Below, piece after piece: positions 31,590-39,858 of a stretch of 64,000 bases of DNA. Within the stretch, counting starts at the first letter, position 1. Each line of letters starts with the position of its first letter. The position numbers were made by a program, and so were the translations under genes. The notes below the pieces were generated by a model. It was not told the origin of the DNA, made no database searches, and worked only from the letters and a program-made list of their open reading frames with translations. This stretch comes from Escherichia phage RB16: the sequence record NC_014467.1; one strand, written 5' to 3'.

Positions 31590-31911
31590 TATGGATCACC
31601 CACAGCAATAAACAAGAATTGATAACCGCGAAAGTGGTACAAATTGCAGCAAAAACACGCGCATTATGAACATCAGTTTTCAGTTCTGCGATCTCTTGAT
31701 CCTTTTCGCTTTCGAATTCGTCGCGGGTTCCGTAATAGCCAGGATCAGCAGGGGTAGAGATACGCACCGCATCTTTTTCTACAATAGTCGCATAACCATT
31801 GTTTACATTTGTTGCACCGTACCAATCACCACGGTCATTGTTAATGATCAGGTGTTGCCCCTTTTCATTGTGCTTTGCTTCACCAGTGACAACTACACGT
31901 TTACCGTTCAT
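31582..31911 (-). CDS. hypothetical protein with C-terminal TM helix (109 aa)
   Basis: C-terminal VFAAICTTFAVINSCLLLWVI. Confidence 0.4.
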   Translation of the reverse strand: MNGKRVVVTGEAKHNEKGQHLIINNDRGDWYGATNVNNGYATIVEKDAVRISTPADPGYYGTRDEFESEKDQEIAELKTDVHNARVFAAICTTFAVINSCLLLWVIHNV

Positions 31912-35560: not shown

Positions 35561-36220
35561 TTAAAAGTTAAATACATTCAGTACGTTAGTTTTCAATTCA
35601 CCAAGCGTACCATTATTTAGGATGATAATATCAGTGGGTTGCGGTTTCAAGCCTTTCTCAGTTGAATGACTATCATCTTCCCCCGTATCACGTTCGATGA
35701 ATACAAATTTAGTCCCGAACTTGCTCAGGTATTTATATTCATGTTTTTGTCGAACGTCTGTAATGATAAAGTGATCTTTATCGGATTTCAAGATTTTCTT
35801 CAATACAATGTCAGTCCATACAGAATCGTTCTCATTGCAAACGATGTCAGTACCGAAAACCTGCATCAAACGGCGTATTGTCCAGGGATGTTTGTTTGTT
35901 TGGCAAATTTCATACGCGATGATATCAGCATTATTAAGCCAGTACCCGCGTTTAGTCAACGATTCAATGCCATTAGCAAACACCATACGCGCACATTCGT
36001 TAGACATCAACAGGGGTGCTTCCCGATCCCCTGAATAGAATGGGTTTGTTTTAGAGAGTTCTCGCAGATAGCGATTCCCTGATGCAGACATTCCATTTCT
36101 CAGGATACTCTTTATTTCATCAGCAAGCGCGATTGCTTCAACGTTCTGATAGTTATCCAAAACGAATTGAGAAACGGTGTCTTTACCTGTTCTCTTTTTT
36201 CCGCAAATACCATAAATCAT
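35561..36220 (-). CDS. 1: deoxynucleoside monophosphate kinase gp1
   Basis: P-loop GKKRTGKDT at N-terminus; T4 gene 1 synteny. Confidence 0.85.
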   Translation of the reverse strand: MIYGICGKKRTGKDTVSQFVLDNYQNVEAIALADEIKSILRNGMSASGNRYLRELSKTNPFYSGDREAPLLMSNECARMVFANGIESLTKRGYWLNNADIIAYEICQTNKHPWTIRRLMQVFGTDIVCNENDSVWTDIVLKKILKSDKDHFIITDVRQKHEYKYLSKFGTKFVFIERDTGEDDSHSTEKGLKPQPTDIIILNNGTLGELKTNVLNVFNF

Positions 36221-36756
36221 GATTCTTTTTTCCGTGGAGTCGGCACGAGTACCTTTCCGTCTATCTCAATTTCCATATGTGCGAAGTTGAACATAGCCAT
36301 ACAGGAAACGGCTTCATCCGAGTCATTAGTGTACATAAGCTCAAGCTCTCCCAGGTTGGAGGGCCAAGCACCATAAAAGCGAAATGTCGCCACAGTTTTT
36401 GATTGCGAGTTATCCAGGATGTGTAAAGCCATTGCCTGTTGTGGTTCACTCCATCGAATTGAATCGAAGGTGTTAAAATCACAGGTTCCAAGCATCCACA
36501 GGTAAACACCCAGATACGAACGCAATTCTTCATCAACAGCAAAACGGATAGTCAACGGATCGAACTCCATTGCAGATCCAGGGATTTTCCCACGGATCAT
36601 AGGGTTCAATGGTACTTCCGTAATTGGAATGTTGACAGAAGGTAGTGTAACACCCTGAATTTGTAGTTTCAACCCTTTCATATAATCATTATCAGGAATA
36701 TCTAACATAAAGTTAGTTGGTGAAATCTGGTTCAGGATCATAGCAGTAGTGTTCAT
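36217..36756 (-). CDS. 3: tail completion / sheath stabiliser protein gp3
   Basis: 179 aa, position and size match T4 gp3; late-promoter-like box upstream. Confidence 0.7.
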   Translation of the reverse strand: MNTTAMILNQISPTNFMLDIPDNDYMKGLKLQIQGVTLPSVNIPITEVPLNPMIRGKIPGSAMEFDPLTIRFAVDEELRSYLGVYLWMLGTCDFNTFDSIRWSEPQQAMALHILDNSQSKTVATFRFYGAWPSNLGELELMYTNDSDEAVSCMAMFNFAHMEIEIDGKVLVPTPRKKES

Positions 36757-36777
36757 TAATGATCTCCATTTTGTAGA

Positions 36778-36785
36778 TATTTATG
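36778..36785 (-). promoter_or_regulatory. late-promoter-like box CATAAATA
   Basis: minus strand CATAAATA 22 nt upstream of gp3 ATG (T4 late consensus TATAAATA). Confidence 0.4.
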
Positions 36786-36790
36786 TAGAC

Positions 36791-36958
36791 CGTGAGCGAA
36801 GCGAACACACGAACGAAGTGAGTGTTTTTTAACTCAACTACATAATTATATATTTATATTTTATATATAGAGAAAAATGTAGTTTTTGGTATAGTTTTTA
36901 ACCAACTGTAAACTATCCGTCTTCGCTTCGCTTGACGGAACTCGCTTCGCTCGTGATC
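36791..36958. repeat. inverted repeat (GAGCGAAGCGA / TCGCTTCGCTC) flanking an approximately 100-nt AT-rich core
   Basis: 11-bp arms at 36794-36804 and 36941-36951 plus additional CGAAG/CTTCG matches; central A+T tract TATATATTTATATTTTATATATAG. Confidence 0.6.
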
Positions 36959-36970
36959 TTGAAAAACTAT

Positions 36971-36999
36971 TTGACCCTTTCAATAAATAGGTATATCAT
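36971..36999 (+). promoter_or_regulatory. possible early (TTGACC...TATCAT) and late-like (AATAAATA) promoter elements upstream of the CTS-protein gene
   Basis: TTGACC at 36971-36976; AATAAATA at 36982-36989; ATG at 37028. Confidence 0.35.
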
Positions 37000-37027
37000 A
37001 CCTATACTTTCAAAAGAGATTGAAAAC

Positions 37028-37813
37028 ATGAAATCATTCAAAGAACTACTGTCTGAATCTGTTCAGACCAAAAAATTTGCTAAAACTGTTGATCTGGTTG
37101 ACCGTGGTAATGCTTCAAAAGGTCAGATCGGTTTCCTGCACTTTGCACACGGTGCTGATTACGATGTGTATGCGCCGGACTCTCACGATCTCGCCTACTT
37201 CGGTAAAGGTGTTGTTCGCCTGAAAGGTAAAACCACTGGTAAAACTCAGGCTGCATATGTTGACTGGGCGAAAGGTACGGTTTCTTTCTATAGCGGCGAT
37301 CCGGCAGATGACCTGAAATTCGACAAGCCAGCGAAATTCAAAGGCGCTTCCCTGTACAAAGAAGCCGAAGAAAATCTGGATCTGTATAATCAGTTAGCGG
37401 AAGACTTCGAAATTGATGTACCGATGGATGAAGCACTGGTGAAAGGTAAGGTGTACAAGCTCCCAAGCAACGATATGCGCTTGCTGTATACCGGACGTAC
37501 CAAAAACAAGCCTACAGGTGAATACGCTGTGTTTACGGTTGTAGATGCCTCCGGTAAGCCTCGTCTGGTATCGGGTAAACGATTTACCCAGGAATACAAA
37601 GGCGATATGCTGTCTAAACTGGTTCTCGCTGAATCGGAAGATCTGAACGAGGCCGCTAAAGGCATTCGCGAAAAAGTTATTGCGGTGTTGGTGAAGCGCG
37701 GGTTTAACGAAAAAGATGCAGAAAAGATGGTTGATAAAAACCTAAAAGATGCGATGAAAGTTCGCCCTGGTGCAACTCCAGGAAAACTAGCGGAAATCGT
37801 GAGCACCTTGTAA
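37028..37813 (+). CDS. internal head protein-like, with T4-type capsid targeting sequence
   Basis: N-terminus MKSFKELLSE parallels T4 IP CTS MKTYQEFIAE with LxE protease site; Lys-rich 261-aa protein; start reset from ORF-track 36932. Confidence 0.55.
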   Translation: MKSFKELLSESVQTKKFAKTVDLVDRGNASKGQIGFLHFAHGADYDVYAPDSHDLAYFGKGVVRLKGKTTGKTQAAYVDWAKGTVSFYSGDPADDLKFDKPAKFKGASLYKEAEENLDLYNQLAEDFEIDVPMDEALVKGKVYKLPSNDMRLLYTGRTKNKPTGEYAVFTVVDASGKPRLVSGKRFTQEYKGDMLSKLVLAESEDLNEAAKGIREKVIAVLVKRGFNEKDAEKMVDKNLKDAMKVRPGATPGKLAEIVSTL

Positions 37814-37849: not shown

Positions 37850-38702
37850 AATATCGGTTCCAAACTTTTTTCGCGCTGTATGGTTTTCCTTTCGACTGGA
37901 AAGCCTGTGTAGGCAACCAAACTGCTTTCGCCCAGTCTTTTGGGGCTATCTCTGCAAGAGGTGATCGCAGGTGCGCAGGTAAGTATGCTTTGATCATTTG
38001 ATCTGCACCGCGCATCCCTTTCACGTTGTTCCAGTTGATTTTCAATCTGGTTTTGTTTGAAAGGCGATCTGTTGATCCGTATCCACGTTTCAAAAGTTCT
38101 TCTAAAAACTCTTGACGGGCTTTAGGTGGCGCATAGTGCAAGTTCAAACCGTACAGAACTAAATTACCCGCTTTAGAACGTCCTGAACCCAGGAAGATGA
38201 TTAGCGGGAACCGATCCCAGTATGGTAGGGTATCTTTGTATTTCGCGTCATACACGAACGTATACAATCGCCCTGTTGCTGGTTTCGCTACCCTGTGCGT
38301 TTTGATGCTGGTTTTGATGAAGTCACCAAACCAATCGGTTGAATCCTTTTGACGTTTCGCAGCAGAAACACCCACTGTAATTTTCCGTAAACTATTTCGG
38401 AAGTCGTTGATGATGTCAACTGTATGTTTTTTGCGATAGTCATTGCGTTTTCGTCGGGCTTCGGTTTCTGCTGTACGTCGCGAGATTTCATCATCAATCT
38501 GCTGTTTATAGCGGTGCATAGACTTTGTGAACGTTGCGTATGCAATCCCGTTTTCGTCCGCGAATTTTTTGGCTGTCATGCCTTTTAATTTTGCGCGTCT
38601 GAATTTAACACCCAGTTCAACCCATTCACCAAGTTTTCGCTTCGGTGGCGGTTTCGGCTTATCTTCTTCTGCGATGATCTCAAACTCAAATATAAAACTC
38701 AT
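37848..38702 (-). CDS. 2: DNA end protector protein gp2
   Basis: 284 aa basic protein in T4 gene 2 position between 3 and 4. Confidence 0.7.
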   Translation of the reverse strand: MSFIFEFEIIAEEDKPKPPPKRKLGEWVELGVKFRRAKLKGMTAKKFADENGIAYATFTKSMHRYKQQIDDEISRRTAETEARRKRNDYRKKHTVDIINDFRNSLRKITVGVSAAKRQKDSTDWFGDFIKTSIKTHRVAKPATGRLYTFVYDAKYKDTLPYWDRFPLIIFLGSGRSKAGNLVLYGLNLHYAPPKARQEFLEELLKRGYGSTDRLSNKTRLKINWNNVKGMRGADQMIKAYLPAHLRSPLAEIAPKDWAKAVWLPTQAFQSKGKPYSAKKVWNRY

Positions 38703-39388
38703 AATTCCCTCCGTTTACACTTATCACCATGCCAACGTTTAAACATACCCGGCCTGAAACTATTACCGCAGTATTGGCATTCCATTTTCTCTATATTTGA
38801 AACTGCTTCCCTTATGCGTATCTTTTGTTCTTCTGTTCGGGGTTTCCCCTTTCTAGCATCTGCTGATTTTTTTACTGCATCAGGGGGCATAGTTTTTCCT
38901 GAACATGAGATAGAAATTTTTTGTTTATGTTCTTCTGATAGAGATCTCCCTACCTTAGCGTTTCTCATCTTTTCTATAGACTGTTCGTTGAATAGCCCTG
39001 GTCGAGTTTTACCTTTCAATGGATTGACCCACCCATCTTTCATTTTGCGAGATTTACCTATTTTTGCTTTACTCATTTTCTCTCGCGTTTCGCTGGATGC
39101 TGTTGTGTATGATACCCCACCCTCCCCACCAATTTTTAAATTGTATGTGTGTTCCGATAGCACGAACTCGCGATTGACAAGTTCCTTTTCTTTATCATAC
39201 ATTTCAGAAGGGGTGTCAAACACATACAATATACTTTTTGTGAAGTTGTGTATGCCATATTTGGTTTGTGCTTTCAATAAAAGTTTACCAGACCCCATAT
39301 ACGAATCATTCACATCTGTGGTTGCATGTGCGCCGATATAAATTTTATCGTTGATATTGTTTTTAATCTGATAGACTAAATATTTCAT
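38699..39388 (-). CDS. GIY-YIG homing endonuclease (Seg-like)
   Basis: MKYLVYQIKNNINDKIYIGAH (GIY...YIG), conserved R/E/N downstream, NUMOD3-like EKMSKAKIGK / EKMRNAKVGR repeats; inserted between genes 2 and 4. Confidence 0.75.
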   Translation of the reverse strand: MKYLVYQIKNNINDKIYIGAHATTDVNDSYMGSGKLLLKAQTKYGIHNFTKSILYVFDTPSEMYDKEKELVNREFVLSEHTYNLKIGGEGGVSYTTASSETREKMSKAKIGKSRKMKDGWVNPLKGKTRPGLFNEQSIEKMRNAKVGRSLSEEHKQKISISCSGKTMPPDAVKKSADARKGKPRTEEQKIRIREAVSNIEKMECQYCGNSFRPGMFKRWHGDKCKRREL

Positions 39389-39858
39389 TTCTCGTACCCT
39401 TTCCATCCAAAAACACGTTTGAGGGTGTCTTCGGTTATGATCTTGAACTCCCATCCTTTTGCTTTACATGCAGCATTGGCGGCTTTCCATTTGTCTATAT
39501 TTATGGAGTAAACATAGAGAGCATCAACAAATTTCTTTTTGTTGTGAACGTTGTTGTTCGCTGGCTTAGGTGGGGGCAATGTTTCTTTCATCGGTTTGAC
39601 TTCCCATAGGTAGGTCACACCGTTATCCATCTCAACATAAAAATCCATGAAGTAACGCCGTCTTTTACCGTCTGCGTTGCTGAAATAAGGTATCACAACC
39701 TCTTCACTGTTCCAGCGTTTCACATGCGGATTCCTGTCAAGCCAGTTCATTATATATTTTTCCCAGCTTGACCGATACGTTATCTTTCGAGGATCGCCTT
39801 TATATTTTGTTATGTTCTGGGGCATAAAAGACCCCTTGTACGTCTGTCTTCCAGCCAT
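39385..39858 (-). CDS. 4: head completion protein gp4
   Basis: 157 aa, T4 gene 4 position. Confidence 0.7.
   Translation of the reverse strand: MAGRQTYKGSFMPQNITKYKGDPRKITYRSSWEKYIMNWLDRNPHVKRWNSEEVVIPYFSNADGKRRRYFMDFYVEMDNGVTYLWEVKPMKETLPPPKPANNNVHNKKKFVDALYVYSINIDKWKAANAACKAKGWEFKIITEDTLKRVFGWKGYEK

Follow-up and report, generated by a model that had tools for sequence, protein, structure and literature searches.

The gap between gene 3 and its divergent neighbour in Escherichia phage RB16 raises the question of what role a GC-rich inverted repeat wrapped around extremely A+T-rich DNA plays in a T4-type phage. The gap belongs to the stretch of 64,000 nucleotides of record NC_014467.1 that was analysed here (the window), and a preliminary description of it, drawn from the letters alone, had offered three candidates: a replication origin or unwinding element, a protein-binding site for the divergent promoters, or the trace of a mobile insertion that had brought in the adjacent gene. 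The segment is a cassette of about 165 bp (36790-36954), one of three copies in the genome, situated in a 271-nt gap between gene 3 (minus strand) and the orthologue of Lw1_gp190 (plus strand), which is followed by gene 2 (minus strand). It is well supported that this cassette is a conserved, three-copy, cis-acting element in which a palindrome, GNA mini-hairpins of strand-specific placement and a core of extremely low duplex stability are the selected features. That it works as a transcription-activated DNA unwinding element (DUE) or replication origin is the explanation tentatively favoured here.

The closest relative of the window is Escherichia phage Lw1 (99.8% identity over the 1.9-kb stretch around the cassette that was compared), a member of the Straboviridae, genus Pseudotevenvirus, RB43 group, whose complete 176-kb genome served as the reference for whole-genome scans. 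Dozens of Pseudotevenvirus phages of Cronobacter, Enterobacter, Klebsiella and Citrobacter show 89% identity over the same stretch. A BLAST search of the gap against the complete Lw1 genome returned exactly two further copies, one between gene 24 and uvsY (135685-135849) and one between rnh and gene 55 (31672-31826); both paralogues fall outside the 64-kb window, which holds no additional copy. The same three loci carry the cassette in Lw1, RB43, a leE-like genome, EcRAM01 and Pantoea phage Phynn, the last being unclassified within the Straboviridae and 68% identical over the aligned stretch of the element. Some 61 phage records contain both the gp3 copy and the uvsY copy, Yersinia phage JC221 has the cassette upstream of uvsY, and in a distant phage from a metagenome it occupies the gp3 gap. 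Exact matches to the core 20-mer TATTTTATATATAGAGAAAA were found in 14 cassette copies from five IMG/VR genomes (three each in RB43, Lw1 and two uncultivated phages, two in CfP1), while a metagenome scan with a 16-mer core gave 120 matches, all of them chance occurrences in A+T-rich contigs and none accompanied by the GC sites. The orientation of the cassette in the genome is identical in all copies.

The preliminary description had proposed comparing this junction in related phages, and when the gap of seven Pseudotevenvirus genomes is aligned, the two GC blocks show little or no change, with variable flanking non-coding DNA. Such conservation matters, since the 11-bp inverted repeat taken alone is not statistically unusual: the window has 8 perfect 11-mer inverted pairs no more than 200 nt apart, spread over 5 loci, and Markov-1 simulations give 3.8 on average. 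The motif CGAAGCGA occurs six times in the window where 1.5 occurrences are expected, and three of the six lie within the cassette. Because an inverted repeat of this kind is not rare by chance, the reality of the cassette rests on its conservation and paralogy.

The anatomy of the cassette was compared in a three-copy and a 21-copy alignment, and hairpins and stems were counted over 22 copies. From left to right it comprises a left GC block (AGACCGTGAGCGAAGCGAACACACGAACGAAGTGAGTG), an AT-rich palindrome, a T-rich segment and a right GC block (ATCCGTCTTCGCTTCGCTTGACGGAACTCGCTTCGCTCG). The left block carries two sites on the plus strand, site A (GAGCGAAGCGA, 36794-36804, with the mini-hairpin 7-mer GCGAAGC at 36796-36802) and site B (GAACGAAGTGA, 36811-36821, with ACGAAGT at 36813-36819), the latter a two-mismatch copy of site A. 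The right block carries two on the minus strand. The inner right site (AAGCGAAGCGA, 36923-36933, with GCGAAGC at 36925-36931) is a one-mismatch copy that sits within the loop of a CCGTC/GACGG stem (36917-36921 / 36934-36938), and the outer right site repeats GAGCGAAGCGA exactly (TCGCTTCGCTC as read on the plus strand; 36942-36952, with GCGAAGC at 36944-36950). Site A and the outer right site are the perfect inverted arms of the preliminary description, which placed the left arm correctly and the right arm one nucleotide too early, at 36941-36951. It had also noted additional half-sites and extreme A+T content between the arms, and the observation as such is confirmed: G+C amounts to 29.9% in the 137 nt that separate them, 13.8% in the inner 65 nt (36836-36900) and 6.1% in the 33-nt palindrome loop, compared with 43.1% in the window. 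The AT-rich string that it quoted, TATATATTTATATTTTATATATAG, begins at 36847.

Each of the four sites contains a 7-mer of the form xC-GNA-Gx'. All 22 copies possess exactly two such 7-mers on the plus strand left of the centre and two on the minus strand right of it, with nearly none on the opposite strands of the cassette. Across copies the 7-mer appears as GCGAAGC, ACGAAGT, CCGAAGG, GCGTAGC, ACGTAGT or GCGGAGC, so that changes are confined to the loop N (A, T or G) or to compensatory replacement of the outer pair (G-C, A-T or C-G). Site A, present in 22 of 22 copies and invariant in seven orthologues, changes only at the loop N (GCGTAGC), a variant also seen at the outer right site of EcRAM01. 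Site B has the orthologous variants ACGTAGT, CCGAAGG and GCGAAGC, the outer A-T pair being replaced by C-G or G-C in the last two. Some copies have longer stems, such as TCGGC-GAA-GCCGA in Phynn and TTCGC-GAA-GCGAA in JC221. The spacing of the two sites on one side varies by locus from 17 to 21 nt, and the right-hand order of site types is either A'B' or B'A'. Across the Lw1 genome there are nine cases of two such 7-mers on one strand no more than 30 nt apart, whereas the mean over simulated genomes is 4.3 pairs; six of the nine belong to the cassettes. Hirao and colleagues described GCGNAGC and CCGAAGG as 'extraordinarily stable' mini-hairpins of DNA, and these are found in the G4 origin, RSF1010 ssiA and the N4 promoters (PMC13037366). 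The substitution pattern of the sites fits such hairpins better than a motif read as duplex. On each side the GNA strand is the one running 5'→3' toward the centre, and by inference it would be the template for leading strands departing from the centre.

Between the GC blocks lies the central palindrome (36836-36884), with arms AACTACAT (36836-36843) and ATGTAGTT (36877-36884) around the 33-nt loop. The loop includes the core TTATATTTTATATATAGAGAAAA (36854-36876), of which TTATATATAGAGAAAA, where the loop ends, is invariant in 20 of 21 aligned copies. To the right of the palindrome only is a conserved T-rich segment (TTTGGTATAGTTTTTAACCAACTGTAAACTAT, 36885-36916), which makes the cassette asymmetric; its sequence is genome-specific and common to all three copies within a genome. 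A stem of at least 8 bp around an A+T loop of 16-44 nt is kept in all 22 copies despite at least five arm variants: AACTACAT/ATGTAGTT in Lw1, RB43, Miller and CfP1, ATGTACTG/CAGTACAT in leE and Olmo, ATGTCTACT/AGTAGACAT in EcRAM01, ATGTCCACT/AGTGGACAT in Phynn, and imperfect arms in JC221 and NODE_247. A clean double change separates the EcRAM01 arms from those of Phynn.

The arms are identical across all three copies of one genome, and the centre as a whole is more alike between paralogues (88% identity) than between orthologues (76%), whereas the outer parts show the reverse (67-68% between paralogues, 79-80% between orthologues). The centre thus evolves in concert, which may reflect either gene conversion or the tracking of one trans-acting factor. 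The gp3 copy of Citrobacter phage Margaery has undergone a natural deletion of about 52 nt that removes exactly the palindrome and leaves the four GC sites intact. This loss is typical of hairpin-stimulated deletion, as would be expected for a hairpin formed during replication.

The cassette centres are also the weakest duplexes of the genome. In a nearest-neighbour scan of the 176-kb Lw1 sequence they rank first to third in instability at segment lengths of 30, 50 and 80 bp. Over 30 bp they reach -25.1, -25.6 and -27.5 kcal/mol; the next segment is at -29.4, and the genome mean is -40.4 (sd 2.9). Both single strands of the cassette fold much better than shuffled sequences (z = -4.4).

Promoters are arranged around these centres so as to fire outward. 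The rnh/gene 55 and uvsY copies are flanked by outward-facing sigma-70 promoters with 11 of 12 matches, namely TTGACT-16-TATAAT leftward (rnh) and TTGAAA-17-TATAAT rightward (gene 55) at the former, TTGACC-17-TATAAT leftward and TTGACT-16-TATAAT rightward at the latter. The leftward promoter of the uvsY copy (Lw1 135654-135682, minus strand) is an orphan that serves no ORF and is directed, in antisense, at the 3' end of gene 24. It repeats in inverted form the uvsY promoter on the opposite side of the cassette, and RB43, EcRAM01, JC221 and Phynn have conserved it. In the window, the gp190 orthologue is preceded by a sigma-70-like promoter (TTGACC-17-TATCAT, 36971-36999, plus strand; 10 of 12 matches) that is conserved in relatives. 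It is overlapped by a late-like octamer, AATAAATA (36982-36989, plus strand), which reads TATAAATA, the T4 late -10 element, in EcRAM01. On the other side, outside the cassette and before the gene 3 start, a late-promoter-like CATAAATA (36778-36785, minus strand; TATAAATA in RB43) is predicted to serve gene 3. Within the cassette the only scan match to a sigma-70 promoter, TAGAGA-16-TATAGT, was rejected for lack of conservation, its -10 hexamer reading TATGGT, TATACT or GATTAC in relatives.

Several other features accompany the promoters. A short stem-loop (AGGTAT-ATC-ATACCT, 36989-37003) shares nucleotides with the -10 element of the gp190 promoter, takes the form GGTATACTATACC or GCTATATCATACC in relatives, and recalls the promoter-plus-stem arrangement of the PeSL (promoter-early stem-loop) cassettes of other T4-type phages, discussed below. 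GATC (Dam) sites recur in or beside the flanking promoters of all three cassettes, several of them within the -35/-10 spacer (for instance 36761-36764 and 36955-36958 in the window, and 31606-31609, 31656-31659, 135670-135673 and 135864-135867 in Lw1), and Lw1 is annotated with a Dam methyltransferase and three other DNA methyltransferases. Inspection by eye gave no convincing conserved match to DnaA, IHF, CRP or LexA sites.

The positions of the cassettes resemble those of origins in two respects. The cumulative GC skew of Lw1 has minima at about 31 and about 100 kb and maxima at 64 and 172 kb, and at its minima lie two of the three cassettes (centred at about 31.7, 100.8 and 135.8 kb) as well as the two main sites where transcription diverges. 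The uvsY copy of Lw1 ends at 135849, 56 bp upstream of the start codon at 135905; in the T4 record, oriF is placed at 115321 and the uvsY start at 115327, that is, at the 5' end of the same gene. Low duplex stability, skew minima, divergence points and the oriF-equivalent position lend circumstantial support to the unwinding or origin role raised in the preliminary description. Unwinding and hairpin formation in vivo, any part in initiation and the source of the primer are inferred.

A mechanism can be proposed on this basis. The central 65 bp or so (14% G+C), being the least stable duplex in the genome and clamped by GC-rich blocks, would receive the negative supercoils that the outward-facing flanking promoters load between them through the twin-domain effect. 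The AT-rich centre would then melt and the palindrome extrude. As the bubble spreads, the strand running 5'→3' to the centre on each side would form its two xC-GNA-Gx' mini-hairpins, which may prevent the bubble from closing, keep single-strand binding protein off, or mark where outward leading-strand synthesis enters and is primed.

Comparison with T4 offers both likenesses and differences. T4 origins share no common local sequence motif, number several per genome and are each individually dispensable, and the rules of their use are unanswered; oriF and oriG combine MotA-dependent middle promoters with an A+T-rich DUE downstream of the promoter, and shifts of skew and divergence of transcription occur close to oriE, oriF and oriG (PMC3016281). 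The cassettes resemble oriF (ori uvsY) and oriG (ori34) in coupling an A+T-rich putative unwinding element to a promoter, in their position near divergence and skew shifts and in their number, and one of them stands, like oriF, on the 5' side of uvsY. The orphan promoter at the uvsY copy may be compared with the antisense primer transcripts that oriE and oriG use, according to notes in the T4 record. Unlike oriF and oriG, the cassettes are paralogous, have a centre clamped by GC-rich hairpin sites and are origins by proposal. Their flanking promoters are of the sigma-70 -35/-10 type (TTGACT, TTGACC or TTGAAA, 16-17 bp from TATAAT) rather than MotA middle promoters, and the AT-rich segment lies behind, that is upstream of, these promoters. 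No MotA box (TGCTT) was seen near -30 of the flanking promoters on reading the sequence, and Pfam gave no match to MotA or AsiA on five candidate ORFs of Lw1.

Outside the T4 group, the ssi signals of RSF1010 lie in an inverted repeat beside an A+T-rich region that is opened by an initiator. RSF1010 ssiA carries CCGAAGG and the G4 origin GCGAAAGC, GNA-triloop mini-hairpins that form in single-stranded DNA at priming sites, and ssiA and ssiB are on opposite strands (PMC13037366). As far as sequence and predicted structure go, the cassette resembles the paired ssi signals of RSF1010 oriV, with hairpin signals inverted on opposite strands beside an A+T-rich region. The signals of RSF1010 and G4, however, are longer hairpins read by a dedicated primase or by that of the host (RepB', DnaG), whereas the cassette has two minimal 7-mers per side. 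The Lw1 record annotates no RepB'-like primase and lists gp61 as the only primase, and any priming at the cassette is conjectural. The N4 virion-RNA-polymerase promoters likewise present a short stem with a GAA or GGA triloop, extruded from supercoiled DNA (PMC13037366). They are single hairpins that need the N4 virion RNA polymerase, whereas the cassette is a 2+2 array. To our knowledge, T4-type phages do not possess that polymerase. Short repeated motifs clustered at a putative origin also recall T4 oriE and plasmid iterons, and repeats that recur at syntenic positions in related phages are regarded as evidence of function (PMC3016281). Whereas iterons are direct repeats at even intervals, the cassette has two plus-strand and two minus-strand sites in inverted arrangement, at a spacing of 17-21 nt that varies by locus.

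A number of observations weigh against an origin role, the proposal for which, in RB43-like phages, draws on sequence and predicted structure. Transcription from the flanking promoters leaves the AT-rich centre behind, unlike that at T4 oriF and oriG with their downstream DUE, and the copy in the window has on its left a late-type promoter only, with no leftward sigma-70 promoter. GC skew is confounded with gene orientation, so that skew position is not independent evidence. Although oriF matches the uvsY cassette, T4 oriG and oriE occupy no gaps equivalent to those of the rnh/gene 55 and gp3 cassettes: the former lies within gene 34, at 2.2 kb from rnh, and the latter within gene 5, at 3.4 kb from gene 3. 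Margaery is viable without the centre of its gp3 copy, which makes the centre of that copy dispensable. Finally, conservation exceeds what hairpin stability needs, with full 11-mers and 17-mers invariant, and the central arms are genome-specific yet identical in the three copies; both facts also fit recognition by a protein, which may be a transcription regulator and not an initiator.

Protein recognition is the essence of the main rival, which revives the regulatory site of the preliminary description and which we regard as possible but doubtful. Under it, a phage or host protein would bind the four GARCGAAGYGA sites, the palindrome or both as duplex and co-regulate the promoters of gene 55, uvsY, rnh, gp190 and gene 3, perhaps by looping or by shut-off of early promoters. 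The placement of every cassette between outward-facing promoters, the four copies of the 11-mer in a symmetric 2+2 layout and the reach of their invariance past the 7-mer hairpins are all as expected of an operator, and arms that vary between genomes and match within a genome look as if they co-evolve with one trans-acting dimer, as does the concerted centre (0.88 identity between paralogues, 0.76 between orthologues). Gene conversion could also give that concerted evolution, however, and the geometry is loose for an operator: site centres lie at about -47/-68, -59/-78 and -75/-92 relative to the promoter at the three loci (a range of about -47 to -92), the two sites on one side are 17 to 21 nt apart, and the right-hand order may be A'B' or B'A'. 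A protein that reads duplex would not require a free loop N with compensatory outer pairs, substitutions of the hairpin type. No common regulation is obvious for the three downstream genes, and no candidate regulator was identified. The two functions are compatible, as an initiator protein would satisfy both.

Alternatively, the cassette could be an element of recombination or genome architecture, whose cruciform or hairpins are cut or bound by endonuclease VII, gp46/47 or gp59 and seed recombination-dependent replication or gene conversion in place of primary initiation. Its high palindrome and hairpin potential, the frequent exchange among copies that concerted centres imply and the precise loss of the palindrome in Margaery agree with this, and the first T4 plasmid origins reportedly coincide with recombination hot spots, to judge by the title of a 1985 paper by Kreuzer and Alberts, which PMC3016281 cites. 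We nevertheless consider this reading improbable, because three direct repeats 35-70 kb apart are a liability in a recombination-proficient phage, and their retention, like the invariant non-palindromic core, suggests a more specific role.

Much less probable again is a structured RNA, in which the plus strand would be transcribed and the hairpins would act in mRNA stability, in processing or as a small RNA. G-T (G-U) wobbles in the central stem of JC221, of the EcRAM01 uvsY copy and of NODE_247 pair on the plus strand only, and late transcripts of gene 24 could read through at the uvsY locus. Two of the three loci, however, have neither a plus-strand gene nor a recognisable plus-strand promoter upstream of the cassette, and positions 36500-37200 gave no Rfam match at E ≤ 1 on either strand. 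The GNA strand flips from plus to minus across the centre, which would make no sense in a single transcript, and a GNA triloop on a 2-bp stem is stable in DNA but not in RNA (PMC13037366).

Mobile ancestry, the third candidate of the preliminary description, has very little likelihood. It could take the form of a relic resembling a miniature inverted-repeat transposable element (MITE) with terminal inverted repeats, of a shuffling cassette of the PeSL type, or of the footprint left by insertion of gp190. The terminal inverted repeats and three dispersed copies speak for such a relic, as does the adjacency of genes 3 and 2 in T4, where gp190 is absent between them. The variable insertion sites of a MITE-like element were not seen, however: the same three loci are occupied in every genome examined, Phynn included, with no presence/absence polymorphism of whole copies, and no transposase or recombinase is adjacent. 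Flanking direct repeats that would mark target-site duplications were not noticed on reading the alignments, which was not an exhaustive search. Delivery together with the adjacent gene finds no support: two copies lack a gp190-like neighbour, and Klebsiella phage KP15 has gp190 without the cassette. The PeSL of RB49 and phi1 are dozens of elements of about 100 bp, each with a sigma-70 promoter and a GGGG/CCCC terminator stem, found in hyperplastic regions beside ORFans, whose copies recombine and vary between close relatives (PMC2839356). The cassette shares with them the character of a repeated intergenic T4-type unit with promoters and stem-loops, but its three copies are fixed at core-genome loci and its anatomy is different, so that it does not belong to the PeSL. 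An invertible promoter switch was likewise rejected, as the orientation of the core is constant in 22 of 22 copies and no recombinase is adjacent.

That the gap holds nothing special, only divergent late promoters and a chance inverted repeat, is hardly credible even though such repeats are not rare by chance within 200 nt and late-promoter-like octamers do occur in the gap, since the repeats are its most conserved part and stay invariant while the flanks vary, the element has three copies, the best late matches lie outside the cassette, and the sole TATAAATA within it is not conserved, being absent in RB43 and deleted in Margaery.

KP15 (genus Slopekvirus) illustrates how the loci behave outside the family. 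Its gp190 orthologue (82% identity) occupies the same place, yet the cassette is absent and an unrelated element fills the gap. The gp3/gp190 gap of KP15 is 369 bp long and very A+T-rich, with ten GATC sites, sigma-70-like promoters on both strands and an 11-bp perfect GC-rich inverted repeat (TGACGGGGTAA/TTACCCCGTCA) that heads a 42-nt imperfect repeat, arms and interior together spanning about 250 nt. Its gp24/uvsY gap has 18% G+C, five GATC sites and several sigma-70-like promoters on both strands. The KP15 element is unrelated to the cassette in sequence and has neither GNA mini-hairpin sites nor a central palindrome with an invariant core. The architecture at the gp3/gp190 and gp24/uvsY loci thus persists outside the sequence family, and the KP15 gaps are origin-like in a way of their own.

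To the left of the copy in the window is gene 3, encoding the tail completion protein (36217-36756, minus strand). To the right is the Lw1_gp190 orthologue (37028-37813, plus strand), called the CTS-protein gene in the preliminary description, a conserved hypothetical gene of PHROG 7322 (function unassigned). Its product has no Pfam match and no relative with a solved structure, and a fold search with its AlphaFold model (mean pLDDT 70.6) gave no match, all hits having TM < 0.2 and E > 0.03. The gp190 family, restricted to these phages, has a conserved N-terminal domain of about 205 aa with invariant H38, H41 and D51-S-H-D54 and a likewise invariant VRLKG-x-TTG motif in the family alignment, to which at least three unrelated, swappable C-terminal modules are joined. 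Farther right, between gene 2 and gene 4, a 251-aa ORF (38699-39454, minus strand) encodes a seg-type homing endonuclease with matches to GIY-YIG, NUMOD3 and SegE_GIY-YIG, the last just below the Pfam cut-off. Genes 2 and 4 are only 21 bp apart in Lw1, so that this ORF counts as an insertion when set against the closest sequenced relative.

A search of the literature on RB43, Lw1, Pseudotevenvirus, origins and repeats did not find the element described, which is absence of evidence only, as subscription journals lay mostly outside the search. The repeat has left traces in the databases. Two metagenomic contigs start inside the cassette core and the record of phage HK6 (PP337149.1) starts inside the uvsY copy, a sign that assemblies of these phages break at the three-copy repeat; in practice, annotators should expect contig ends at cassettes, given a repeat of about 150 bp in three copies.

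For the choice of replication start sites in T4-type phages it matters that a whole genus, and no fewer than one phage beyond it, has three elements at origin-like positions that are paralogous and precisely bounded. The cassette would be a natural case of GNA mini-hairpins arrayed symmetrically about an unwinding region in a double-stranded DNA phage. A bolder proposal, which we hold to be unlikely, is that RB43-like phages define their origins by a shared module, in which GNA clamps and a genome-specific palindrome are read by a dedicated, co-evolving initiator. If so, the three cassettes would be three primary origins from which replication runs co-directionally with nearly all transcription, in contrast to T4, where origins are without a common motif and no known sequence-specific initiator is needed.

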